Below are positions 4,570 to 51,938 of a stretch of 64,000 bases of DNA, one piece after another. The notes beneath the pieces are model-generated. The model was not told the DNA's origin, searched no databases, and saw only the letters and a program-made list of their open reading frames with translations. Every line of letters begins with the position of its first letter. Within the stretch, counting starts at the first letter, position 1. Made by a program: the position numbers and the translations under genes. This DNA is from Candidatus Bathyarchaeota archaeon (GTDB lineage: Archaea > Thermoproteota > Bathyarchaeia > Bathyarchaeales > Bathycorpusculaceae), in assembly GCA_963780185.1 (NCBI GenBank), contig CAWABA010000003.1:1-64000 (forward strand). Reading direction: 5' to 3'.

Positions 4570-4642
4570 AAACATTTTATAGCTGCCGCTCAAACCCTTG
4601 CTAAGGGTTTTCCAATCCAGAACCCAAAGGAAGGAAAAAAAA

Positions 4643-5197
4643 TTGAACAACACCCAAAATAAAAAACCAAGACTGGGACAGGCAGCAAGAATTTCTTTAG
4701 CCATAGTCATCGCAGCCCTCCTCGTCGTGGTCTCATACTTTGCAGGTTACATGGACCAAGCAGACCAAGCTCTCTTCGCAATCATATTCACCCTCGGCGT
4801 CCTAGCCATGGGCACGACGGGATCGGCACTGCTCATCAGCGTAATAGGCGGAGTGGCTTACTCTTTTGTTTCGCCAAACCTGGGCTTCATAATGATTCTT
4901 CCTTGGCTTGTTCGCGGCGCATCCACCGACGCCATAATGTGGGGGCTACACACATTCAAGCCAAGCAGCTATCCCTCAGCCACAAAGGTGACTGTAGCCA
5001 TGACGATAAGCAGCCTCCTCACAGGTCTCGCCCAGTACTTCTGGCTCATAAAGTTCCTCAAAGTGGTTCCCGACACATCCGCAGTGCTCCTGCTCACCGA
5101 AATCGCCATAATCATAGCCGTCGTCTCAACCATAATCGCCACCTACATCACTACAAGATTCTTGTTCAAAAGAATCAAACCCATCTTACCCTGGTGA
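4643..5197 (+). CDS. Multi-pass membrane protein, ECF S-component-like size and topology
   Basis: About 185 aa with 5-6 hydrophobic segments; first gene of the radical SAM operon. Confidence 0.6.
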   Translation: MNNTQNKKPRLGQAARISLAIVIAALLVVVSYFAGYMDQADQALFAIIFTLGVLAMGTTGSALLISVIGGVAYSFVSPNLGFIMILPWLVRGASTDAIMWGLHTFKPSSYPSATKVTVAMTISSLLTGLAQYFWLIKFLKVVPDTSAVLLLTEIAIIIAVVSTIIATYITTRFLFKRIKPILPW

Positions 5198-5202
5198 CCC
5201 GC

Positions 5203-6330
5203 ATGGTGCATCTGAGGTCCCTGTTCCAGAAAAAACAGATGAACGAGGTCGAGAGTCGTTGCCGCAAAGCCTTCGACGCCTACGGCGTAAGCTCAATCCT
5301 GTGGAACGTCACATACGAATGCGGCTTAAAATGTAAGCACTGTTACGTAGGCGAAACCAAGAAGGCAGAAAACGAACTTAACTCCGCTCAGACGCAATCA
5401 CTAATCTCCAGCATCGGCGACATGGGAATTCCACTGCTTTTCATGACTGGCGGGGAACCTCTGATGCGAAAAGACACATTCAACTTGTTGGCATCTTGCA
5501 AAGACTACGGAATCACAACCGTCCTTAGCAGCAACGGATTACTCATAAATGCAGAAAAAGCGCGTGAACTCAAAAAGAACAACGTTCACTTCCTCGCCGT
5601 CTCAGTTTACGGTCCACCCGCCAAACACGATGAAGTCGTAGGCATTGAAGGAAGCTATGAAAAACTCATGCAAAACATCAAAGAATGCATCAAAGAAGAA
5701 ATCAACATATGCTTCAAAACAGTCGTAAGCAGCTACACCTACGACAGCATACCCTACATCGTTGACAAGGGAATTGAGCTTGGCGTAAAATCATTCTATT
5801 TCTGCGACCTACTTGAAACGGGCAGAGCAAAAAACGCCCACACATGGCGAGTCCCCGAAGAAAAATGGCGAACACTAGCCGATTACCTGTTTAGCAAGGT
5901 CATAGTGGATGGCGAAGCCGAAATCGACTTAGGCGGATGCCCATCCATGGCATCTTTAGCAATTGAACATTTCAAAGAGACACAAAACGTTGACCACGCA
6001 ATCCAGAGGCTAGAATCCCTAAGTGCATGCCCCATAGGCCAAGGCCCCTTGGGCATATCTGCTAAAGGAGACATTTTACCCTGCATCTTCATGCAAAACT
6101 ACTCAATCGGGAACGTTCTCAAAGATGATTTGCGCACCACAGCAACAAACCCGCTAATACAATCAATAGCCTCGAAAAACAATCTGAAAGGCACCTGCGG
6201 CGCGTGCAATTACAGGAAACTTTGCGGGGGATGCAGAGCCAAAGCGTACCTTGCCAGCGGCGACATTTACGGTGAAGACCCTACATGCATGCTAAACCAA
6301 TCAGCAAGGGAACCAACGTCAAAGCTTTAG
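5203..6330 (+). CDS. Radical SAM/SPASM protein, divergent AhbC/NirJ1-like
   Basis: WNVTYECGLKCKHCY, TGGEPL, SPASM cysteines CPIG..PC..CGACNYRKLCGGCRAKAY..EDPTC. The ORF-track extension from 4903 overlaps the upstream gene and is excluded. Confidence 0.85.
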   Translation: MVHLRSLFQKKQMNEVESRCRKAFDAYGVSSILWNVTYECGLKCKHCYVGETKKAENELNSAQTQSLISSIGDMGIPLLFMTGGEPLMRKDTFNLLASCKDYGITTVLSSNGLLINAEKARELKKNNVHFLAVSVYGPPAKHDEVVGIEGSYEKLMQNIKECIKEEINICFKTVVSSYTYDSIPYIVDKGIELGVKSFYFCDLLETGRAKNAHTWRVPEEKWRTLADYLFSKVIVDGEAEIDLGGCPSMASLAIEHFKETQNVDHAIQRLESLSACPIGQGPLGISAKGDILPCIFMQNYSIGNVLKDDLRTTATNPLIQSIASKNNLKGTCGACNYRKLCGGCRAKAYLASGDIYGEDPTCMLNQSAREPTSKL

Positions 6331-11970: not shown

Positions 11971-12083
11971 GACTCCAAAACCCCATTTTCCTTTTTTAGT
12001 TTTAAATCCGCAAACGCCTTCTTTCACTAGCAACTTTAGCAAAACTAATATGTCACAAAATAGAGTTATCCATTTAAGAACAG

Positions 12084-12174
12084 TTCTCGGGGAGCTGGGA
12101 GTGTACCCGGCTGAGAGGACGGCTAGTTGCTGTCGACCCTTAGAACCTGAACCAGGTAATGCTGGCGGAGGGAA
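12084..12174 (+). ncRNA. TPP (THI-box) riboswitch
   Basis: Conserved segments CGGGG, GCTGAGA, GACCC, AACCTGAACCAGGTAATGCTGGCGGAGGGA; P1 TTCTC/GGGAA; directly upstream of thiT. Confidence 0.93.
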
Positions 12175-12180
12175 AAAACA

Positions 12181-12780
12181 GTGAAAATACCTAAAATATT
12201 AAACAAACAACAATCCGAACCTGAAAATCCTAAACCAAATGAAAAAAGCAACAACAATATTTTCTCAACTAAAGTACTTGCTGAAATAATAATTTTCGTC
12301 GCTATGGCGGCGGCGCTGGCTCTGGTCAGCCATTTCTTCTTTGAGCTTCCACAAGGAGGAACCATAAACCTCGGCATGCTGCCTATCTTTTGGCTGGCTT
12401 TGCGTAGAGGACCAAAAATCGGAATATTCGCAGGCGCAGTCTTAGGCGTAGTTGACCTTGCCATAGAGCCTTTCGTAGTTAACCCTGCCCAATTCATCCT
12501 TGATTACCCGTTGGCGTTTGCATGCCTTGGGCTGGCAGGATTTTTCCGCAAAGCAACGGTTGTCGGTCCAATCGTTGGAGTTGTCGTTGGCGGCACGGGA
12601 CGTTTCATATCGCACTTCGTTTCAGGAGTCGTTTACTTTGCCAGCTACGCACCACCCGGCGTAAGCCCAGTCGTGTACTCTTTAGCCTACAATGGCAGCT
12701 ACATGATTCCAAGCATAATAATTTGCGCAGTAGTAATCGGCATACTGCAAAGAAGCAATAGACTGGACATTTACATTTGA
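12181..12780 (+). CDS. thiT: Energy-coupled thiamine transporter S component ThiT
   Basis: LPQGGTI...MLPI, QFILDYPLAF, RFISHFVSGVVYF, YSLAYNGSY motifs; preceded by a TPP riboswitch. Confidence 0.9.
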   Translation: MKIPKILNKQQSEPENPKPNEKSNNNIFSTKVLAEIIIFVAMAAALALVSHFFFELPQGGTINLGMLPIFWLALRRGPKIGIFAGAVLGVVDLAIEPFVVNPAQFILDYPLAFACLGLAGFFRKATVVGPIVGVVVGGTGRFISHFVSGVVYFASYAPPGVSPVVYSLAYNGSYMIPSIIICAVVIGILQRSNRLDIYI

Positions 12781-12789
12781 GGCTCAAAA

Positions 12790-13789
12790 ATGGGGAAACT
12801 GGCAAACAAAGAACTACAAACGCTTCTCGACTGCATAAGGAAGGATTCCCGAGTAGTCATTCCGCCCATGCTCGGCTATGATTCAGGCGTCCACGAAGTA
12901 GACGGCAAATACCTTGTCGTAGCCAGTGACCCATGCACAGACGTCCCCGAAGAATGGTTCGGCTACCTGCTCATCAACTACGCCGCCTCCGACGTCGCCC
13001 TGTCAGGCGCCAAACCCCAGTTCTGCACCATCAACCTGCTCGGACCACCCTCAACCAAAGCTGAAGTTTTCCAAAAAATAATGAAGCAAACATGCAAAGC
13101 CGCCGACGAACTCGACATCGCAATCGTGCGTGGACACACGGGCACTTATAACAGCTTGCAGGGCTTGGTTGGGGTGGCAACCGTTTATGGGACGGTTAAC
13201 TTGGAGAAGCTGATTACGCCGGCAAACGCTAAGCCAGGCGACCTGATTTTGTGCACGAAGCCGCTTGGTTTGGAAACGGTCGTCAATTTTTCCTTGCGGC
13301 AAAAGAAGCTGGCGGCGGAGTTGTTTGGGGCAGAGCAGCAGGTAAAGCTTTCTGGGCGGGTTCGCATGCAAAGCTGCGTCGGCGAAGCGTTGCTACTGGC
13401 GAAAACTGGGTTTGTCCACGCGATGCATGATGCCACTGAAGGCGGGTTTGTGGCGGCGCTAAATGAGCTTGCGCAGGCGTCAGGGGTGGGTTTTAGTGTG
13501 AATTGGGAAAAAATCCCGAAATCAACCGAGCTTATGTCATTGCAGAGTTTTTTTAACCTCAGCGATGAGCAGGTGCTCTCTATGTCTTCAACTGGAACGG
13601 TTTTGGCAGCGGTCGATGCTCAAGCCACCGAAAAAGTGACAGCTTCTCCTGAGGCAAAGCGGGTTAACGGCGCATTTCATAGGCAAATTTACAGAAAACA
13701 AAGAGCGTGTACTCAGTAGGTTGGGGAAGGGGATGCCTTTTCCCGAGGTTCCCAAAGACCCGTACAGCCAGATAGTTTCAGGGAAATAA
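12790..13789 (+). CDS. AIR synthase-related (PurM/HypE/ThiL fold) ATP-binding protein (frameshift near 13645)
   Basis: MGKL start, GYDSG, ASDP, ASDVALSGA, GHT, MHDATEGG, SSTGT; the C-terminus continues in the +1 frame to DPYSQIVSGK*. Confidence 0.82.
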
Positions 13790-23547: not shown

Positions 23548-25411
23548 ATGGGTTTGCTCGGTTACGCAGGAAAAATTCTACGCGTCAATTTATCCACAGG
23601 CAAAATAACTGCGGAGAAACTAGACGAGGAAACAGCCAAAAAATACATCGGCGGCATTGGCCTAGGCATGAAGCTTTGGCTTGCCAACTCGAAAGCAGGC
23701 GTTGAGGCACTTAGCCCTGAAAACCCGCTGGTTCTAGCCGTCGGACCCGTTTCAGCAACGATGTTCCCAACAGGCGGAAACGGACATGCCTTCATTTCAA
23801 AGTCACCTGAAACAGGCGCTGTCGGCGAAGCAGTAAGCCACGGCACCTTCGGAGCAGAAATAAAGCGGGCAGGCTACGACGCCATAATTTTAGTCGGCAA
23901 AGCCGAAAGACCCGTTTACCTTTGGATTGATGATGATTCAGTCCAGCTCTTTGATGCAGAAAAAGTCTGGGGAAAATCACCCAGCGAAACCGAAGACGCA
24001 ATTAAAGATGAACTCGGCGACTACTACGTCCGCGTCGCATCCATCGGTTTAGCAGGCGAAAAACTATCCAAAATCGCCAACATAATTAACGAGAAGACCC
24101 GTGCAGCTGGAAGAACAGGGCTTGGCGCAGTGATGGGGTCAAAGAACCTTAAAGCCGTCGCTGTGCGAGGAACCAACGACATTGTTGTTGCGAAGCCTGA
24201 TGAATTTATTGAAATGGTCAAGGAATTTCATGAGAGGATGAAGGGTCCAGCCGCACAGAAATACCGAACGCTGGGATCCTCAGAAAACGTCATGATTCAA
24301 AACGCACTGCACTGTTTGCCCACACGCAACTACAACAACTCATATTTTGACCGCGCTGAGAGAGTAAGCGGCGAAATCCTCAACGAACGCTACGTCGCAA
24401 AAATAATTGCTTGCAACTCATGCGCGATGCGGTGCGAGCATGAAGCCGTTGTCCATGATGGACCCTACAAGGGAACCATGGCGCGGATGGAGTACGATAA
24501 CATTTGGGCTCTTGGCCCCAACTGCGGCGTCGACAAACTTGACGCAATAATCAAAGCCGCTGACCAATGCAGCTTCTATGGTTTAGACGCCACAAGCACA
24601 GGCGTAACAATCAGCTTCGTGATGGATTGCCATGAAAAAGGCATCTTGACACATGAGGAACTCGGCGGAATCGACGCTCACTTCGGCAACTCAGAAGCAC
24701 TCCTACAGCTTATTGAGAAAATAGGCAAGCGGGAAGGAATCGGCGATGTTTTGGCTGACGGCGTAAAGGCAGCCGCGGCGAAATTTGGCAAAGACTCAGA
24801 AAAGCTTGCCATGGAAATCAAGGGTTTAGAAGTCACAGGCTACGATTTGCGATGCTTAAAAACTGCGGCTTTAGGGTTTGCAGTTTCTTTCCGTGGAGCG
24901 GACCACAACCGAAGCGGCGCCTACACGTTCGACCTATCAGGCAAAGTTGACCGTCTTAAAGCTGAAAAAGGCCGAGGCAAACTCGTCAAAGACTCCGAAG
25001 ATGTTTACGCCCTAATCGACTCACTAATAATCTGCAAGAACGCCAAAGGCACCCTCTACAAGGAGCTGCCAGACATGTCTAAGCTGTACACTCTGATAAC
25101 GGGGTACGAGATGACACCGCAGGAAATCGCTCTTGCAGGCGAACGCATAAACAATCTTGCGCGGCTAATCAACATCCGAGAAGGACTTAAGCCGCAAAGA
25201 CGACACATTACCGTGGAAAGTTATGAACCAGCCAATCTCAGACGACGGCCCAGCGAAAGGCTCCGTTGTAACCCAAGCGGAACTGGATTTGCTTTTGGAC
25301 GACTATTACGTTTCACGCGGCTGGACACATACGGGAGTACCTACAAAAGAAACCCTTGCCAAGCTCGGGTTGGAAGAATTCTCAGGATTAGTTGAAGGGA
25401 AAGAGGATTAA
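23548..25411 (+). CDS. Tungsten aldehyde:ferredoxin oxidoreductase family protein (frameshift near 25188)
   Basis: GYAGKILRVNLS, RAAGRTGLGAVMGSKNLKA, CNSCAMRC, EYDN, RGADH, DSLIIC; the C-terminus LDDYYVSRGW..GVPT..TL.KLGL is in the +1 frame. Confidence 0.9.
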
Positions 25412-25413
25412 GA

Positions 25414-25917
25414 ATGGTCAGAATTCACGAAAGAAAATTCGTTTCAGTTGACCCAGAAAAATGCGTAGGCTGCCAAGTTTGCGAGTACGCCTGCTCATTC
25501 ACCAAGGAAAAAGCGTTCAACCCGCTTAAGTCACGAATACGGGTGGTGCGGGTTAACCAGTTGGCTAACATGTCTGTTACCTGCAGGCTCTGCGAAGACC
25601 CCGCTTGCGTGGCGGCTTGCCCAAGAGATGCGTTGTCGCAGTCGACGGATACGGGAAACATTGTTCTTGACAAAGACAAATGCAATGGCTGCGGATGGTG
25701 CATCGAAGCATGCGACTACGGCGCCATAATGCTGCATCCCGAAACCAAAGTAGTCTACGTCTGCGACCTCTGCAAAGACAAACCCGACGGACCCCAATGC
25801 GTCAAATGGTGCCCAGAAGAAGCAATAACCCTAGTCACAAGCGACACCCTAGCCCAGAAATCAAGACTCAGCGCCATCAAGAAACTGTTCCAAGAGCCAT
25901 CAGAAAAAATAAGTTAA
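25414..25917 (+). CDS. Four-cluster 4Fe-4S electron-transfer subunit (AorA/DmsB-like)
   Basis: 16 Cys in four groups; starts 2 nt after the AOR stop. Confidence 0.9.
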   Translation: MVRIHERKFVSVDPEKCVGCQVCEYACSFTKEKAFNPLKSRIRVVRVNQLANMSVTCRLCEDPACVAACPRDALSQSTDTGNIVLDKDKCNGCGWCIEACDYGAIMLHPETKVVYVCDLCKDKPDGPQCVKWCPEEAITLVTSDTLAQKSRLSAIKKLFQEPSEKIS

Positions 25918-29122: not shown

Positions 29123-29713
29123 TCAGGTTTTTGTGACGCTGTCTCTTCCTGCTTGGAAGGCTTTCAGGTTCAGGTTGATGTATTTTTCTTTTAGCCTGCC
29201 TGCGATGGCTTGCTTAAACGACTCCTCCGTAACGGGGACTTCTGGAAGAGCGGAGAGTGCGCCGAGCAGGATGGTGTTGACGACCAGCAGGTTTCCAAGC
29301 TTCTGGGCGATTCCTGCCCCGTCGACTTCATGCACCTTTGCCTTCTCCCGCAGAATCGCCATAAGCTCATCCATCTTCTTCGGCTTAACGCCCACGCCCG
29401 CACTGCATGGCGGAATATACTTCATGTTAACAATCACGTCGCCGCCCCGCCTAAGCATCGGCAAAGCCCGCGCAGCCTCCAAAACCTCAAAACCCACCAG
29501 AACATCCGCCCGACCCGTTTCAATCAGAGGAGACTCAACTTTGTCGCCGATTCGCGCGTAAGCAACGATGGAGCCGCCGCGCTGAGCCATCCCGTGAATC
29601 TCAGCCTTCGCCACATCAAAACCCTCCAATATGGCGGCTTCACAGAAAATATCGCTCAACACAACCACGCCTTGCCCGCCGACGCCACTGAAAACCGTGT
29701 CCAAACGATTCAC
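29123..29713 (-). CDS. iorB: Indolepyruvate:ferredoxin oxidoreductase beta subunit
   Basis: GVGGQG, EIHGMAQRGGS, NTILLGAL, NLKAFQAG; GTG start at 29713 overlaps the iorA stop. Confidence 0.92.
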   Translation of the reverse strand: MNRLDTVFSGVGGQGVVVLSDIFCEAAILEGFDVAKAEIHGMAQRGGSIVAYARIGDKVESPLIETGRADVLVGFEVLEAARALPMLRRGGDVIVNMKYIPPCSAGVGVKPKKMDELMAILREKAKVHEVDGAGIAQKLGNLLVVNTILLGALSALPEVPVTEESFKQAIAGRLKEKYINLNLKAFQAGRDSVTKT

Positions 29714-31902
29714 TGCTCTTTCCTCCTGATTGCTTGGTTGGGGCAGACGGCTTCGCAGACGCCGCATCCGTAGCAGAGCGACGCGTCAACCGCGACTTTG
29801 CCGTTTGCTTTCTGGATGGCTGGGCAACCGAAGGCTTTGGTGCAGACTTCGCAGTCATTACATTTCTCCGTGACTTCTCTGGGGTTGCCTCGTTCAACCA
29901 GAAGCGGACAGGCTCGCTGAGAAATGACGACTGAGGGACCATCATAATCGATAATTTTCCTAAGCGCGGAAATGGTGCCGTCTATGTCGTAGGGGTCAAC
30001 AACAACCACTTTGTCCACTCCGAGACCCCGAACAACATCCACCAGCTTCAGAATTTTGGCGTCCGTGCCCATCGCGGTTTTTCCCGTTTCAGGCGTCGGC
30101 TGATGCCCAGTCATCGCAACCGTCGTGTTATCCATAATGACCACGCAAACATCAGCCCGATTCCACACCAGATTCATCAAGCCGGGCATGCCAGCATGGA
30201 AAAACGTTGAGTCACCGATAACCGAGAAAACCTTGTCTTTAACGCCAGCATGAACCATGCCTGCAGCCTGCGAAATCCCAGCGCCCATGCAAAGGCAAGA
30301 TTGAACCGTGTTGATAGGCGGCAAGACGCCAAGGGTGTAGCAGCCGATGTCGCCTGTGACGATTTTGTCGTTTGATTTTCCCGACAAACTCAGAGCGCCT
30401 TCGGGGCAAAGGGGGATGCATTTGGGGTCTCCGCCGCAGGTGTCGCATATCATGGCTTTGCGGGTAGCGGGGTTTAGCGTTACGGCGCCGAACTTGCAGG
30501 CTTCTATGCACCAGTCGCAGCCCTTGCACTTATCCATATCAACCAGAATCGCGCCTGTTTGGCTTGAACGTGTCAACGCTTTTTCGGGGCAAGCCGTGGT
30601 GCAGGGGGCTTCAATGCAGGCTTTGCAGGTTATCGCTGTGTTGAAGATTTGGCCAAGCCGCACTGAGCGAATCCGCGATTTAAGCGGGTTAAAAACATGT
30701 TCCTTCTCGAAGGAGCAAGCGTATTCGCAGATGTCGCAGCCGACGCATTTGTCGTTGTCGCAGTTAACGTATTGGTTCACCATGTTCAACGAGTAGTAGA
30801 ATGCTCGGTGGGGGCAGCCGGGGCACAGGTTTGGCGGTCTAGGCTGCAAATCCAAAACCTCGGGGGCTTGCGCTTTCTCCGTTAGCTTTAGGCTTGCGAA
30901 GGCTTGGCGTACATTGTCGGGTGTTAACTCGCCGATTTCCTCCAAGCCCAATTGAGTTTTTCCTAGGGCTTGCAGACCCAGCCGCTGAATGTTTTCTTCC
31001 AAGTAGGGCCGTAGCTCTTCGATTACTATGATTTTTTTTACTTTAAGCGCAAATCTTTGAACAATCTCATGGGGAAAAGGATGCACAAAACCCAGCTTCA
31101 GCCACGAAAACTTTTTGGTGTCAAGCACTGAGCGGGCATAGTAGTAGCCTACGCCGCTGCCGATGATTCCGACGTCGCTGCCGTTGTCTTCAATCACGTT
31201 GAATTTTGAGTGGTTAACAAAAGTTTTTGTTTCCGCCAACTTCACCTCTAAAACACGGTGCTGCCGAATGGCGTTAGAGGGAACCATCACCCATTTTGAA
31301 CCTTGCTTATCAAAATCAGCTCTGCGGCTCAACTTATGCAGACGACCCAGTTTTACCCGAGCCTTCCCATGAGCAACCCTCGTTGTTAAACGCAAAATGA
31401 TGGGCAAATGCAGGCTTTCACTTATTTCAAACGCCTCTCGAGCCATATCCAAGGCTTCCTGCGGGTTACCTGCATCCAGCAGAGGCAACTTGGAGTGAAC
31501 CGCAAAGTACCGCGTGTCCTGCTCGTTTTGGCTACTATGCAACGCAGGGTCGTCGCACACCGCAATCACCATTCCGCCTTCAACGCCAGTGTAAGCCAAC
31601 GTCATAGCGGCGTCTGCAGCGACATTTAAGCCGACATGTTTCATAGAAACAATGGAGCGCACGCCAGCCATCGAAGCGCCCGCAGCTACCTCGGTGGCGA
31701 CGATTTCGTTTAGGCTCCACTCTGCGTAGATGCCGAATTCTTTTGAGGCTTCAGCGAGGGTTTCCAAAATTTCTGTGGCGGGTGTTCCAGGGTAGGAAGC
31801 AGCTACTTTGACGGCGGCTTCAATTGCGCCTCTTGCAACTGCTTCATCGCCGTTAAGCAAGGCAAAACTGCCCGGCTTATCTGCAGCAATTTTGGAAGTC
31901 AT
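29710..31902 (-). CDS. iorA: Indolepyruvate:ferredoxin oxidoreductase alpha subunit with inserted four-cluster ferredoxin
   Basis: YPGTP, MKHVGLNVA, SSQNEQD, CPGCPHR, GDIGCY, GDSTFFH, TGHQP, C-terminal 2x4Fe-4S; extra 16-Cys domain at about 30367-30780. Confidence 0.92.
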   Translation of the reverse strand: MTSKIAADKPGSFALLNGDEAVARGAIEAAVKVAASYPGTPATEILETLAEASKEFGIYAEWSLNEIVATEVAAGASMAGVRSIVSMKHVGLNVAADAAMTLAYTGVEGGMVIAVCDDPALHSSQNEQDTRYFAVHSKLPLLDAGNPQEALDMAREAFEISESLHLPIILRLTTRVAHGKARVKLGRLHKLSRRADFDKQGSKWVMVPSNAIRQHRVLEVKLAETKTFVNHSKFNVIEDNGSDVGIIGSGVGYYYARSVLDTKKFSWLKLGFVHPFPHEIVQRFALKVKKIIVIEELRPYLEENIQRLGLQALGKTQLGLEEIGELTPDNVRQAFASLKLTEKAQAPEVLDLQPRPPNLCPGCPHRAFYYSLNMVNQYVNCDNDKCVGCDICEYACSFEKEHVFNPLKSRIRSVRLGQIFNTAITCKACIEAPCTTACPEKALTRSSQTGAILVDMDKCKGCDWCIEACKFGAVTLNPATRKAMICDTCGGDPKCIPLCPEGALSLSGKSNDKIVTGDIGCYTLGVLPPINTVQSCLCMGAGISQAAGMVHAGVKDKVFSVIGDSTFFHAGMPGLMNLVWNRADVCVVIMDNTTVAMTGHQPTPETGKTAMGTDAKILKLVDVVRGLGVDKVVVVDPYDIDGTISALRKIIDYDGPSVVISQRACPLLVERGNPREVTEKCNDCEVCTKAFGCPAIQKANGKVAVDASLCYGCGVCEAVCPNQAIRRKEQ

Positions 31903-31914
31903 AGGTTTAGTCCA

Positions 31915-33234
31915 CTACATTTTGCCTTTGCGTAAGTCCAGAACTCTCTTTGCTTTTCCTTCAGTTCGCGGAAGCTCACCCGGCTTCACAATTTCCACGT
32001 CAGCCGAAATGCCGGTTACGATGTGGATTTGTTTGGATATGCCGTTTTTCAGCGCGGTCACATCGACTTTCGGGTCTTTAGCGGCTTTGTCAGATAATTC
32101 AACCTTAACCACAAACGTGTCCAAAGCGCCTGGTCTATCGACGACAATCAGGTATTGAGCGGCAAGTTCCGAGAAACACATAACCGCGTACTCAACCTGC
32201 GATGGAAACACGTTTACTCCACGAATAATGAGCATGTCATCTGACCTGCCGGTAACCCGCATCATCCTGGCGTGCGTGCGTCCGCAGCCGCAGGTTTCGG
32301 TTTCTATTTTGGAGATGTCTCGGGTTCTGTAGCGGAGCATCGGAAGCCCACGCTTAGTCAAGCCGGTGAAGACTATTTCGCCTTCTTCGCCTGGAGGCAG
32401 AACCTCGCCTGTGTCAGGGTCGATTGTCTCAACGATGAAGTGGTCTTCCCAAACATGCAAGCCCTTATGCTCGGCGCATTCAACTGCGACGCCTGGACCG
32501 CAAAGCTCAGTTAATCCGTAAACGTCAAAAGCCGTGATGCCTAAGTCGCTCTCGATTCGCTCCCTAATCTTGTCTGACCACGGCTCCGCCCCAAACATGC
32601 CCAGCCTGAGTTTAAGGTCTTTTCTTGGGTCTACGCCTTCCTGAGCCATGGTTTCAGCCAAGTAAACCGCGAAGCTCGGGGTACAAGCCAGAATTGTGAC
32701 GCCTAAATCTTTCATAAGCTTGATTTGGCGCTGAGTCATTCCGCCGCTTGCAGGAACTATTTTTGCTCCGAGTTTTTGGGCGCCGTAATGGAAGCCTAAG
32801 CCGCCGGTGAATAAGCCGTAGCCGTAGGCGATGTGTATGGTGTCTTGGCGTCTTCCGCCTGCAGTGTAAATGGACCTTGCCATCAACTCCTGCCAAATAG
32901 CCATGTCGTTTTGAGTGTAGAGTCCAACGATGGGGTTTCCCGTTGTGCCGCTGGAGGCATGGATTTCCACTATCTCGTCGGATTTTGCGGCAACCATCCC
33001 GAAGGGGTAGTTTTCTTTCAGATCGTTTTTTATGGTGAAAGGAATCTTTGTGAGGTCGTCAAGTGAACGGATACTGTCAGGTTTCAACCCGACGCCGTCA
33101 AATTTTTTCTTGTAAAAAGCACTATTTTCGTAACAATATTTCACCAGCCCTTTTAGTTCTTTTAGCTGGTGTTGTTTCAGTTCCTTAGCAGGCATGGTTT
33201 CGATTTTCTTGTTCCAGTATGTTGCGTCTACCAT
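31915..33234 (-). CDS. paaK: Phenylacetate--CoA ligase family protein
   Basis: HASSGTTGNP, YGYGLFTGGLG, GAEPWS, YGLTE, RYRTRD, GRSDDMLIIRGVNVFPSQ, EGKAKRV. Confidence 0.92.
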   Translation of the reverse strand: MVDATYWNKKIETMPAKELKQHQLKELKGLVKYCYENSAFYKKKFDGVGLKPDSIRSLDDLTKIPFTIKNDLKENYPFGMVAAKSDEIVEIHASSGTTGNPIVGLYTQNDMAIWQELMARSIYTAGGRRQDTIHIAYGYGLFTGGLGFHYGAQKLGAKIVPASGGMTQRQIKLMKDLGVTILACTPSFAVYLAETMAQEGVDPRKDLKLRLGMFGAEPWSDKIRERIESDLGITAFDVYGLTELCGPGVAVECAEHKGLHVWEDHFIVETIDPDTGEVLPPGEEGEIVFTGLTKRGLPMLRYRTRDISKIETETCGCGRTHARMMRVTGRSDDMLIIRGVNVFPSQVEYAVMCFSELAAQYLIVVDRPGALDTFVVKVELSDKAAKDPKVDVTALKNGISKQIHIVTGISADVEIVKPGELPRTEGKAKRVLDLRKGKM

Positions 33235-33660
33235 ATTTGCGCCCCTCTCTTTAGAGCCGTCAGATAACATTCTCTTATGCGTCTATTAGATAAAAGTTCC
33301 CAATTTAGCCGCCTTTCACGGCATTTTTACGTATGGGAAACCCGGCTGCGGGCAAAAAGTCTGGGTGCAAAAAAGTTGTTACTTTTGGCTTATAGTTGCT
33401 GCAGAATTTGTGATGCCTCCTGTGAGATGGAAAAAGCTGTTTTTGGGTTTTTGGTTAAAAAAACATTTTTAATTTGCTGGCTTGACAGGCGTGCTCTTAC
33501 CTGAGGACGGGGTTTGCTGAGGCGGGCGCATTTCGAAGGAAGAAAAGAGAAAAATGCAAACTAACTGTGAGAATGTATCCGTCGTCTTCTCAGCCCGTGG
33601 TCTTCTTGCCGTTTGCGATTCAGATACAAAAAAAGGGAAAAAATGGTTGTGTGTGTTTGT

Positions 33661-36606
33661 TTATGGTTTTTTCCTGAGCATCAGAACAACTGCGACGGCG
33701 AGTGCGATGATTACCGCGATGGCTGAGCCAAGGGTGTAGGTCATTAGGTCTGAGGTCGTGGCGACATTGTTCATCGGTGTAGCGGTGGGTGTTACCGATA
33801 CCGCATTTTGGATTGTCATGCCTGTTTGCGCTGAGGATCCCCAGTAAGCGTTGGTGCCTCCGAATGTGGCGGTGATTAGATAGTTGCCAGGAATGCTTGG
33901 AGGCGCCCACGTGTAAGTGTATATGCCAGTGTCTGTTGTGTTTGCATCGCCTATGTGGATCAGGTTGTTGTTAGGGTCGATTGCGTCTATGGAGACAGTT
34001 ACGCCTTGGAAGCTTGTGGGTTTAGCTTGCTGCTGGTAAACGTAGCCCATCCAGCCTTGCATTATTGAATCCGCTGCACATGGCACTCCGTTGGGGAAGT
34101 CCGATGCCTGCTGATCCTGTTTTGTGCCGGCTGAAATATCCAACACCGTGCCTTGAATTACGACGTTGGTTCCTGCAATAACAGAAGTCTGAGGTGCCTG
34201 CACTGTTGCGGCGCTTGGTCCTCTGCCAATGCTGTAGATTTGGTTGTTGTAGCCGTTCATGGTCGCCACGTAGCCGTTTGCAGTTGCCCATGAATAGCCG
34301 CTGGTGGGTGACCACTCGCTCGGGTAACCTGAAAGCGACCATATCAGTTTTCCAGTGGTAGCGTTGACGGCCTGATAGGTTGCGCCCTTGTAAAGCGGAT
34401 CGGGGATTGTGTGTTCGGTTGTGGCTATGTAAACAACGCCATTGGAAATGGATTGTATGAAGGTTGGATAATCGCCGTAAGAAGTGTTGAAGCCAGCGTA
34501 GGTACTGTTGCCTGTGCCTCCGTTTCCGTAGGTCCACGTCAGAGTTCCAGTTAAATCGTTGCGGCAGTAGAGTACTCCTCCGAAGCAGCAGTCGTAGAGA
34601 TTGCCGTAAGCCATTTGACCGGCGTATCCGTTTGGTGTTTCATAGTAGTCGAAGGGTACTTCTGTTGCAGTTGGACCCCATAGAGAATTGCCGTTATCCA
34701 GATTGAATCCTACCCATTGCATGGTTTCGTGGTAATAGGCAGTGAAGGCGCGTGTTTGGAAGTCGACTGCGCCCCATTCTATAGTGAGGTTGCCTGCTGG
34801 CGGGTCATAGGTCTTCATCCAAAGTATTAAACCGATTGCGCCTTTAGACGCGTTGAGGTTGACAGCGAACATCGTGAATGGAAGCTGCGGATAGCCATTG
34901 CCGTTTCCCGCAAAGCCTGAGGGTAAGGAGCCGTTTCTGCAGAGCATAATGTCGCCGTAGTCGGCTGCAATTATTGTTGCAGGGTTTGTTCCCGCTGCCG
35001 GTGTGGTATATTGACCTGTTACGCTGTTGTACGTGGGTTGTAAGGGCATGCTGTTTAGCCATGACGCGGATACGTTCCAGTCATAAGTTGTCAGAGAACC
35101 GCTGTTGATTTTAGCGATTGAAGTGGTTGTTGACCCAGGGGCAAGTGCATTGGAGTTCAGTGGAATGTTGCCGTTGACGGTAATCGGTGACCCATATAGG
35201 ACTACGCTGCTGGTACCGGAGGGTGCGCCTGGCGGTAGAGTTCCAGTTTCACCTGCAAGCGGAATTGGAATTGTCGGAATTAAGAGTCCATTGGAGCCAT
35301 TTATTATTGACGGTGATAAACTTCCGCCGCCTGTGTACGGGTTAGTGTCGTATTGCCACAGTTTAGAAGAGTTCCACTCGGCTAAGATACCAGTTTGGGT
35401 TTGAAGCTGTGCCAGCATTATTGAAGACGAATCTTAGTTGTTCACCGCTTGGACCCGCTGCGGATGTTCCTGTCGGGACGCCTGTTACGTTGAAAAGCGG
35501 CAGTCCTGTGTATGCGTCGAAGGCGCGTGCGAAGTTGGCTGTGAAAAGTATTGGTGCAAAAGTGCCGTGTTGGTCAGGGTCCCAAAGGTTGTAGATGTAG
35601 CCGAATGAGATTGGTGGTATAGTTGAGAAGAAGACCAGAGCACTTTCCCTGTCTGCAAGTTAACGCAAACTTCTGGGCCGCTGTTCGGTCCTGTGTAGGA
35701 CACAGGTTGTGTGTAGTAGAGGTATCCGTCGATTATTATGGGGTTAACGAACCTTGGCTGATATGCCGTACCCTCGAAATAGGACACTCCGTAAGCCGCA
35801 CCGCTAGGGTCGGAACCTCCTGCGGGGTACATGTTTCCACCCACAACTCCACCAAATTGGAGTTGGCTTGTCCACATGATGTGCCCAGTTAGAGGTCCTA
35901 CGGCGTCGGGATGGTAATATGCACAGCTTGTGTAGCCTCCCAGAATTGGCGATCCTGAACCAAGCCAATTTGAAGCCAAGGTATACCAATTGGAGTTTTC
36001 GCCGTAAATCGGGGTTTCCCAGTAAGCAATTGGTAGCGGTTCGCTAGTTGTAGCTGGAGGAATTGGTGTTTGCTGAACAGTGAGGGTTGTTGATGCAGTG
36101 CTCGGCAGGTAAGTGTCGCCCATCAACGATGATTGGGCGTAGCCGTTGCCGTTCGCTCCGTAAACTTGTCCTTGATAAGTAAAGTTAAGATTGTAAGTGC
36201 CAGTCATTGAAGGAGTGAAGGCGTAGAGTTGTGATGATGTTGAGTCTGTGATAATAGGCCAGGTTTGAGACGTAACTTTTCCGTCAGGGTCAGTAATGGT
36301 GAGCTGATAGTTGTGGAATCTGTAGTTGTTTGACATTAAAGCTGTGCTCGCTGTTGTACCGTTTGTCCCTACTGCCGCGGTTGAACCGCCGGCGGCGCCG
36401 TAAACGCAGTCAAGCCACATGTAAATGATCATTGATTGGCCGACACCGATGGGGTTAGGTTCTGCATTGATGTACGCGTATGTCGGAATACTCCATGTAG
36501 GCGAATGTGCGCAAGCATTTGGGAATAGCGTCATCGAAAATGTCAATGAAAGCATAAAGGATAAAACAATCATTATAGCTGCTATCTTTTTTTTATTATT
36601 TTTCAA
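33661..36606 (-). CDS. Large exported PQQ-like beta-propeller surface protein (two compensating frameshifts near 35620 and 35383)
   Basis: Signal peptide, PNPIGVGQ, YWETPIYGEN, HIMWT, IIIDGYLYY, GKLIW, GRGPSA, QGTVLDISAG, DPNNN, C-terminal TM + RKKP. The segment between the two ORF-track pieces reads open in another frame. Confidence 0.8.
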
Positions 36607-50665: not shown

Positions 50666-51938
50666 ATGCCAATGCAGCTGACGAAGAGCAGAAAAAACCT
50701 CACTGACCCATACTTCTTAGTTCTATGCGTCATGGGAGCCTTCGCCATCTTAAGCTCCACCATGTCAAAAGACCCCGTGCTGCAACCTTTTTCGCTCATA
50801 AACTCAATACACCCGCACGACTTCACCGGGATCATCGCAGCCGCCTCCACCATTCCGGGAATCCTCGATCAGTTTGCCAGCCGCTTCATTATCAGACCAT
50901 TTCGGAAGAAGAAAAATCGTCCTACTCTGCAACATTCATCTTCGCATCGGCGCCTTTCCTCTATTTACTGTGTTACGGCTGTGGTGGCAGCTTGCACTCG
51001 TGAGGTTTTACCACGGCTTTGCAACCGCGATTTTCGTGCCTGTTGCAGAAGCCACGATTGCGGAGCAGTTCCCGGCAAAAAAAGGCAGACGCATCTCCGA
51101 TTTCAACGCTGCGACCTACGTTGGAAGGGGACTTGCACCAGCGCTGGGCGGCTACATTTTACTCTTAACGAATCAAGGCATGGCAACCCCGAGCAACTTT
51201 GCAACTTTGTACATAGCTGTCGGCGTGTCAGGCATTGTCGCGTTTGCAATTGCGCTTCTTTTGCTTCGGGAAACAAAAACCGCGCCCGCTGAATCGACGA
51301 AGGCGCCGTTTTCAACTCGGAAACTGTTGAGGGGTTGGCTTGAGGTTGCAACAAACAAGGGCACGTTAGTTGTTACATTTGTTCAGTCCGTGCAGTACTA
51401 CGTTTTCGGCGTCGTAGAATTCTATTATGTGCTGTACATGCAGCAGGTTGCAGGTTTCAACTCGTTTGCGATAGGCATCGTCATGACCGTGCAGATCGTC
51501 TCCTTGATAGTGTCTAGACCCGTAATGGGGCGCTTTTCAGATAGAACCAGCCGACGCATACCCGTTGTCATAGGATGCCTCCTAAGCGGAGCACTCCTGT
51601 TCATAATTCCATTCACCACGCAATACTGGGTGTTCATTCTGGTCTCTATTGGCTACGGCCTAGGCTTCGCCATGGTAATTTCGTCAACCTCGCCAATCAT
51701 GGTTGAGGTTAACCGTGCAAGCTTCGTTGGCACTTCAATGGGTTTCTTGAGCACCATGATGGACATTGGGCAAGCCATTGGACCCATAATAAGCGGCGTA
51801 ATCTTAGCGTCAATCCTTGGCTACAACGGGCTCTTTACATCGTTGACGTTGCTACTTGCTGCTTCAGCCGCCGTCTTTTTCGTATCAGGCATAGCCAAAA
51901 CAAGAGAAAACAAAGAAAAAGTTGCTGTAGCCCACTGA
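50666..51938 (+). CDS. MFS transporter (several indels in the 5' third)
   Basis: SD.FGRRK and GRFSDRTSRR motif A, RFYHG; the N-terminal half is split over three frames. Confidence 0.8.

Follow-up and report, generated by a model that had tools for sequence, protein, structure and literature searches.

Canonical indolepyruvate:ferredoxin oxidoreductase (IOR), the two-subunit IorAB enzyme covered by the family models TIGR03336 and TIGR03334, is of the Pyrococcus and Methanococcus type. In the domain scheme of PMC13768988, the proximal cluster is bound by domain VI, and the medial and distal clusters belong to domain V. Another described electron chain is that of AorAB, an aldehyde:ferredoxin oxidoreductase (AOR), in which the clusters of the small subunit join the cluster of the catalytic subunit (11.9 Å) to a distal partner, and a subclade of AorA polymerises through its C-terminal helix into filaments (PMC10413684). 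Here we analyze the iorA gene found in a stretch of 64,000 nucleotides (the window) of contig CAWABA010000003.1, from a Candidatus Bathyarchaeota archaeon (assembly GCA_963780185.1). Its product, the IOR alpha subunit, carries inside its chain a four-cluster ferredoxin domain (the insert). This domain is a genuine feature, conserved in a single lineage to which it is restricted, and we think that it probably works as an electron relay.

The model TIGR03336 gave 679.7 bits on the whole of IorA for a cut-off of 650.9, in a match split into two stretches. When the two halves of the protein were scanned apart, residues 15-372 corresponded to profile positions 4-371 and residues 514-725 to positions 380-595. 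Since the match breaks there, residues 375-512 are extra to the family, at about profile position 375-380; they remain unmatched, whereas the insert-less IorA of a related locus (L011) matches positions 4-595 in one stretch. Pfam detected POR_N at residues 25-189 and TPP_enzyme_C at residues 518-659. Residues G563, D564, S565, D591 and N592 were invariant in an alignment of IorA (A1), GDS...N being the motif for thiamine pyrophosphate (TPP). Judged by score, domains, cluster cysteines and the presence of an IorB partner, the protein is on sequence grounds a member of the IorA family, and it departs from it only in the contiguity of the profile match.

The insert stands between two well-preserved junctions (Table 1). 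The upstream one, CPGCPHRAFYYSLNM, brings Cys360 and Cys363 (the CPGC motif), and the downstream one, KIVTGDIGCY, which is invariant in A1 and where the profile resumes at position 380, brings Cys521. By analogy with the 2-oxoacid:ferredoxin oxidoreductase family, these cysteines would be ligands of the proximal cluster together with Cys665, and none of the 106 full-length relatives lacks any of the four. The spacing between CPGC and GDIGC is 157 residues with 20 cysteines in the insert-bearing form. The motif-matched bacterial loci listed have 3 cysteines there and a spacing of 21-22 residues (35-38 in those of Dehalococcoidia type). Within the insert, 17 cysteines were counted, of which 16 form four motifs of the CxxCxxCxxxC or CxxCx(4-5)CxxxCP type (C386/389/392/396, C426/429/434/438, C459/462/465/469 and C486/489/495/499), as for four [4Fe-4S] clusters, and Fer4_11 of Pfam was matched at residues 423-506. 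The C-terminal 2x[4Fe-4S] domain is kept as well: Cys681, 684, 687, 693, 710, 713 and 716 are present in all 106 relatives, and Cys720 in all but one. Counting one proximal, two C-terminal and four inserted clusters, the alpha subunit could thus bind up to seven. An earlier note on this DNA had proposed an in-frame domain of about 138 residues with 16 cluster cysteines between these two junctions, extra to canonical IorA and paralogous to an AOR-adjacent ferredoxin, as well as the retained C-terminal domain and the count of seven clusters, and our analysis agrees with it on each of these points.

Five residues ahead of the first cluster motif stands the seventeenth cysteine, Cys381 (window 30760-30762, minus strand). 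All 106 insert-bearing relatives share it, and a valine takes its place in the stand-alone paralogue described below.

The family of the insert was established by sequence and by fold. The window also encodes a stand-alone four-cluster ferredoxin (Fd4) beside an AOR gene, and BLASTP aligned the insert to it with 69 identities over 134 positions (51%, E = 6e-53), well above what chance would give. Among proteins of solved structure, the best matches of the insert were the Fe-S subunit of WOR5 from P. furiosus (6x6u_B and 6x1o_B, E = 4e-25 and 6.5e-25), AorA of the Aromatoleum AOR (8c0z_C, E = 2.2e-23) and a subunit of the WorABCSL entry (9mqx_E, E = 1.6e-22), while Fd4 itself matched 9mqx_E (4.3e-27) and 8c0z_C (1.1e-24). 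An AlphaFold2 model of IorA built on the shallow alignment A1 was unusable (mean pLDDT, the predicted local distance difference test, of 48.2). With a mixed alignment (A4), in which MAFFT misplaced the C-terminal halves of the bacterial sequences, the mean pLDDT was 79.6; domains I-II and the insert were good, the latter with 87-98 in blocks of 10 residues over 381-500, and residues 509-620 (TPP domain) together with the CPGC junction stayed below 50. Foldseek searches with the insert of the A4 model retrieved 9mqx_G (TM-score 0.81, normalised by target length as are the following; root-mean-square deviation 1.8 Å; 37% identity), 8c0z_C (0.77, 1.9 Å, 39%) and 6x6u_B (0.73, 1.6 Å, 38%), then subunits of HycB type (0.65-0.66, identity 27-28%). 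Since sequence and fold alike place WorS, AorA and the WOR5 small subunit (WOR5-S) nearest to it among solved structures, the insert is paralogous to the partner subunits of AORs. It is not itself an AOR small subunit, as it is neither a separate subunit nor the product of an AOR-adjacent gene; Fd4, in contrast, is a separate polypeptide in the AOR-neighbouring position. After the last cysteine of the insert (C499), 13 residues lead to KIVTGDIGCY, and no C-terminal helix of the AorA type was found there.

Conservation was assessed with a word-indexed protein search in which residues 350-530 of IorA, covering the junctions and the insert, served as the query. The best 120 matches listed were all 74-94% identical over 95-100% of the query, and 106 of them were full-length proteins of 723-732 residues. 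Source names were given for few of them, mostly Bathyarchaeota or Bathyarchaeia, one being labelled Binatia. All 17 cysteines of the insert are kept in the 106 full-length relatives. Their mean identity to the IorA of the window is 76% in the insert, 83% in the N-terminal domains, 74% in the TPP domain and 67% in the C-terminal ferredoxin domain. As all cysteines are kept and the identity is similar to that of the catalytic domains, the insert appears to be a working domain under purifying selection. The ESM Atlas likewise holds a cluster of 730-residue proteins with 53 members, mostly from Bathyarchaeota, named 'thiamine pyrophosphate-dependent enzyme family protein'.

The protein collection searched with residues 350-530 contains more than 100 full-length insert-bearing IorA, versus none among the best 150 representatives retrieved with the same query from a library of representative sequences, where only the fragments P0121 and P0127 were seen. 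A 50% cluster of insert-bearing IorA may there be represented by an insert-less sequence.

Genomes were scanned, one per species, with two peptide patterns (TGDIGCYT and SMKHVGLN), which gave at least 70 loci; counts of loci hereafter refer to the matches listed. Seventeen (L001-L017) belong to Bathyarchaeia metagenome-assembled genomes (MAGs), one labelled Nitrososphaerota and one Bathycorpusculum, and 53 (L018-L070) are bacterial, with an identity of 40-48%. L017 was left out of the insert count, its sequence ending before the insert site, and 14 of the 16 assessable Bathyarchaeia loci bear the full insert. In L011 (3205-5028, plus strand) it is gone, with a stub of 16 residues left, and in L016 (9974-11959, plus strand) 61 of its 138 residues are kept, following an in-frame deletion between the first and third cysteine motifs; both open reading frames (ORFs) are intact and pass TIGR03336. 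None of the 53 bacterial loci listed has the insert, their IorA matches spanning at most 1791 nt versus 2178-2193 nt for full-length insert-bearing genes, nor did any of them match the stand-alone ferredoxin. Since the scan relied on two peptide patterns and on the matches listed, the taxonomic range of the insert and its archaeal insert-less relatives are under-sampled in these figures.

Phylogenetic analyses were based on the IorA core and on the insert, both by a quick search with support from the Shimodaira-Hasegawa-like approximate likelihood ratio test (SH-aLRT) only. The core tree (28 rows, insert removed) excluded L004 and L005 because of frame breaks and L014 and L017 because they are truncated; of the 53 bacterial loci, eight served as outgroup and the other 45 were not included. 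All the Bathyarchaeia IorA formed one clade (SH-aLRT 100), in which the insert-less L011 was the sister of L010, which bears the insert (95), and L016, with its truncated insert, that of L002 (99). As both are nested among insert-bearing sequences, the loss in L011 and the truncation in L016 look like later, secondary deletions; the stub of L011 retains 'VKQY', similar to the first residues of the insert (VNQY). The insert tree combined the inserts with 139 representatives of their nearest relatives (152 rows, 139 columns), after exclusion of L001, L004, L012 and L015, for which the motif cut failed, and of 10 of the 149 representatives with fewer than 110 aligned residues. The 12 inserts formed one clade (SH-aLRT 93) within a group of 21 rows (82) that also holds the Fd4 of the window and its representative P0122. 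Beyond this group the resolution was poor. In these alignments the insert has a single origin, and an ancestor of the Bathyarchaeia IorA would have gained it once, from the family of the archaeon's own AOR small subunit. Ferredoxins of this family are also found fused to AOR: two such fusions, judged from the sequence starts without a domain scan, occur among the best 150 representatives, P0188 (897 residues) with an AOR-catalytic-like start and a ferredoxin match at 695-824, and P0204 (758 residues) with a ferredoxin match at 5-144 followed by AOR-like sequence.

With some reserve, we favor a reading in which the insert functions as an electron relay within the molecule, a double ferredoxin with four [4Fe-4S] clusters of the AorA, WorS and WOR5-S type. 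The insert interrupts the loop of the TPP-binding domain that joins the second cysteine (of CPGC) to the third (of GDIGC) in the presumed proximal-cluster site; on either side, only a few linker residues tie it to that loop. As both attachments are this short, the four-cluster chain should have one end beside the proximal cluster and the other pointing outward, away from the core of the enzyme. In the double-ferredoxin fold, the N and C termini are at the same end of the chain, which fits this arrangement. The insert would then constitute a second, longer built-in conduit beside the normal C-terminal two-cluster exit, through which the TPP site and a protein partner would exchange electrons, and the enzyme would be an IOR with its own fused 'small subunit', as AorA is for AorB. 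Speaking for this reading are the place of the insert in the profile, its four complete motifs, its occurrence in most of the Bathyarchaeia loci, the retention of all 17 cysteines, the single origin with later losses, the kinship with AOR small subunits, the cluster chain of AorAB (PMC10413684), the domain scheme of the family (PMC13768988) and the conserved paaK-iorA-iorB context. Some observations weigh against it. That the insert lies close to the proximal cluster is deduced from the topology of the chain, the A4 model staying under a pLDDT of 50 in the TPP domain and at the CPGC junction, and the occupancy of the inserted clusters is predicted from their cysteine motifs. Also, L011 and L016 keep intact ORFs, so the insert is not essential for a foldable IorA. 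Finally, a conserved candidate partner gene was looked for beside the iorAB operon of the Bathyarchaeia loci listed, and none was found.

A bolder version of the relay, which we regard as doubtful, is that of a seven-cluster oxidoreductase with two paths leading from the proximal cluster, the usual two-cluster domain and the fused wire of AorA/WorS type, the second of which would plug directly into a multi-enzyme iron-sulfur network. If this were true, the network might be made of AOR-Fd4 wires, or of a hydrogenase or NAD(P) module, arylacyl-CoA reductive carboxylation, or the reverse, would be driven without free ferredoxin, and the two electrons derived from TPP might go to different acceptors.

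The genes around iorA are those of an ordinary IOR. In the Bathyarchaeia loci the conserved order is livGF-paaK-iorA-iorB-livK-livHM-thioesterase, which corresponds to two ABC ATPases, a PaaK-like ligase, IorA, IorB, a periplasmic binding protein, two permeases and a 4HBT thioesterase, accompanied by a divergent ACT-pair gene. Among the 17 loci listed (2.7-22 kb each, with flanks of up to 10 kb per side), PaaK is upstream of iorA in 16, IorB downstream in 15, and the transporter and thioesterase families are present in 11-13. PaaK beside iorAB is also common in the insert-less bacterial loci, and thus such a context is that of an ordinary IOR. The assembly of an ABC transporter, a PaaK-like ligase, IorA, IorB and a thioesterase places the enzyme, as an ordinary IOR, in the interconversion of aryl acids, arylacyl-CoA and arylpyruvates. 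Translation of iorB in the window probably begins near 29713, which would agree with the length of about 195 residues seen in relatives. A gene for a Pat-like ACD-GNAT protein recurs near paaK-iorAB in a subset of the Bathyarchaeia loci.

Table 1. Features of the iorA region and of the AOR-Fd4 gene set, in window coordinates.
Feature	Position	Strand	Matches and remarks
iorA, IOR alpha subunit with insert, 730 aa	29710..31902	-	TIGR03336 IOR_alpha; Pfam POR_N, TPP_enzyme_C
Upstream junction CPGCPHRAFYYSLNM, residues 360-374	30781..30825	-	Cys360 and Cys363, presumed proximal-cluster ligands
Four-cluster ferredoxin insert, residues 375-512, 138 aa, in-frame	30367..30780	-	16 motif Cys and Cys381
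Downstream junction KIVTGDIGCY, residues 513-522	30337..30366	-	Cys521, presumed third proximal-cluster ligand
C-terminal 2x[4Fe-4S] domain of IorA, residues ~676-728, domain V equivalent	29719..29877	-	Pfam Fer4, Fer4_10, Fer4_21
iorB, longest ORF 214 aa	29123..29767	-	Pfam POR 1.1e-38; NCBIfam IOR beta top match, under its cut-off (195.5 vs 237 bits)
paaK-like phenylacetate-CoA ligase, directly upstream of iorA	31915..33270	-	TIGR02155 557.9 bits, under the cut-off of 646.3
Stand-alone four-cluster ferredoxin Fd4, 167 aa, presumed AOR small subunit	25414..25917	+	Paralogue of the insert
Tungsten-type aldehyde:ferredoxin oxidoreductase (AOR)	23548..25411	+	Pfam AFOR_N and AFOR_C; broken near 25189

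The earlier note had gone further and proposed an IOR-AOR complex, in which the insert would dock IOR to the tungsten AOR or to an AOR-small-subunit wire, so that aldehyde oxidation feeds arylacyl-CoA reductive carboxylation. The kinship of the insert with Fd4, in identity and in the tree, speaks for such a complex. Solved members of this family stack end to end as Fe-S nanowires (PMC10413684; PMC12318220). Also, Fd4 extends 27 residues past the part aligned with the insert, a tail that recalls the C-terminal helix joining AorA subunits, and both gene sets lie inside about 8 kb of the window. However, AOR or a stand-alone Fd4 was found in none of the 17 Bathyarchaeia loci listed, within the flanking DNA of up to 10 kb per side. 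In the window itself the two sets are on opposite strands, and the ~3.2 kb between the AOR-Fd4 set and iorB hold two unrelated genes, one without a family match and one for a NosD-like beta-helix protein. The AOR, moreover, owns a small subunit as well as a divergent ThiS/MoaD-like gene and a divergent radical SAM gene, it is frameshifted, and the insert has no C-terminal tail. A complex prediction for Fd4 (alignment A2) with the insert (alignment A3) returned a score of 0.00, which, being obtained without controls, counts neither way on binding. We rate the complex as unlikely; it stays a minority possibility that the gene neighborhoods do not favor.

The break of the AOR gene corresponds to a single extra base, as seen in the three-frame translations and the DNA, and it could reflect a true pseudogene or an assembly indel. 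Past the break, another frame gives a good AOR-like C-terminus that stops 2 nt before Fd4. Split-looking ORF pairs were also seen in the window at 4598-6330, 33661-36606 and 50666-51938, and frame breaks occur inside the iorA of L004 and L005. Such split pairs and frame breaks suggest that these assemblies contain indel errors.

Otherwise, the insert could connect IOR with a module linked to NAD(P)H or H2, for instance a flavoprotein resembling GltD, a diaphorase of NuoEF type or a hydrogenase of Hox type, much as PadI does in phenylglyoxylate:NAD+ oxidoreductase or WorS in WorABCSL. The top NCBIfam match of the insert is indeed the N-terminal four-cluster part of PadI (80.6 bits on the insert alone and 78.1 bits on the whole of IorA, for a cut-off of 700), followed by AegA (68.4) and YgfT (66.7), within a range of family cut-offs of 700-1154. 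Genes for a Hox-type NAD-linked [NiFe] hydrogenase (NuoE-like, NuoF-like and HoxU-like proteins, small and large subunits, e.g., L002:339-5153) were found 4-10 kb upstream of paaK in 5 of the 17 loci listed (L001, L002, L006 and two others). In addition, IorA can accept redox modules of the NAD(P) type, as indicated by a deltaproteobacterial MAG (L068:9977-13420, plus strand) whose 1147-residue IorA bears a GltD-like module (Fer4_20 and Pyr_redox_2) and is from its domains a putative NAD(P)-linked IOR. But the hydrogenase genes lie on the opposite strand and are confined to these five loci, which are close relatives of one another, no flavoprotein domain is present in the IorA or IorB of the window, and no flavoprotein is conserved in the operon. 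Such a link seems to us improbable.

The insert might also have no role in catalytic electron transfer; it could serve as an electron store, or as an appendage for structure, oligomerisation, redox sensing or protection from oxygen. The intact IorA ORFs of L011, with no insert, and of L016, with part of it, are in line with this, as is the wholly present C-terminal two-cluster exit. Nevertheless, all 16 motif cysteines are kept in every one of the 106 relatives, the insert is as well conserved as the catalytic domains, and its closest relatives are dedicated electron-transfer subunits, so that we give this explanation little credit.

Lastly, an assembly chimera or misjoin, which the signs of indel errors (the AOR frameshift and possible split ORFs) could bring to mind, was rejected as practically inconceivable, the same in-frame junctions being present in 106 full-length proteins from several sources and in 14 genome loci from separate assemblies.

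Elsewhere in the window, a TPP riboswitch (RF00059) was detected at 12078-12191 on the plus strand, with 63.3 bits for a gathering score of 54.3, in this archaeal DNA. Directly downstream are a ThiT/YuaJ-type thiamine transporter gene (12181-12780) and a ThiL-like gene of the AIR-synthase family (12790-13719).

Bathyarchaeia are among the most abundant archaea of sediments and soils. Their IOR is routinely treated as an ordinary amino-acid fermentation enzyme (e.g., PMC7886697), and a genome-centric paper on termite-gut Bathyarchaeia presents Ior as an ordinary 2-oxoacid oxidoreductase. In the accessible part of a 2026 review on the diversity of pyruvate:ferredoxin oxidoreductase (PFOR), neither 'insertion' nor 'inserted' appears and IOR is mentioned only in passing. 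The earlier note had allowed that the architecture might be already common and described. Common it is, in the sequence databases; full-text searches turned up no account of an IorA that has a ferredoxin domain inside its chain, a provisional result given that subscription journals and supplements were outside the search. As almost all members of this IorA clade carry a fused four-cluster wire at the proximal-cluster loop, an electron partner differing from that of the textbook IOR is suggested. If so, the conversion of aromatic acids and amino acids may likewise differ in thermodynamics and in direction. The insert is also a natural case of a nanowire-type polyferredoxin module moved from tungsten enzymes into a TPP enzyme, and the lineage offers its own controls, with one natural deletion (L011) and one natural truncation (L016).

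Compared with known systems, the IorA of the window shares with canonical IorAB the POR_N and TPP_enzyme_C domains, the CPGC...GDIGC site, the C-terminal 2x[4Fe-4S] domain, a separate IorB and a PaaK-like neighbor, and differs by the 138-residue four-cluster domain that breaks the profile. With AorA (8c0z_C), WorS (9mqx) and the Fe-S subunit of WOR5 (6x6u_B), the insert has in common the double-ferredoxin fold, the four cysteine motifs and 37-39% identity, as well as a presumed role as a cluster chain leading off a catalytic subunit. However, these AOR small subunits are free-standing and encoded beside AOR, whereas the insert is covalently held within a TPP enzyme. In AorA, a C-terminal helix drives filament formation (PMC10413684), whereas the insert has no such tail.

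PadI is a four-cluster module that serves an enzyme of the 2-oxoacid oxidoreductase family. PadI and the N-terminal domains of AegA and YgfT, although they are the top NCBIfam matches of the insert, belong to proteins with a fused GltD-like FAD/NAD(P) domain, while the IorA of the window has no Pyr_redox or Fer4_20 match and its insert scores far under the cut-offs of these families. The HycB/HydN-type subunits (7z0s_B, 7qv7_A) and PorE/PorF of methanogen PFOR are likewise four- or multi-cluster wires on catalytic subunits (for PorE, PMC13768988), but they are separate polypeptides and more distant, at the lower identities and TM-scores reported above. Finally, the deltaproteobacterial IorA of L068 has also taken an extra redox module in-frame into the alpha subunit; there, it is an Fer4_20 and Pyr_redox_2 module of about 500 residues, sited between TPP_enzyme_C and the C-terminal Fer4 domain.

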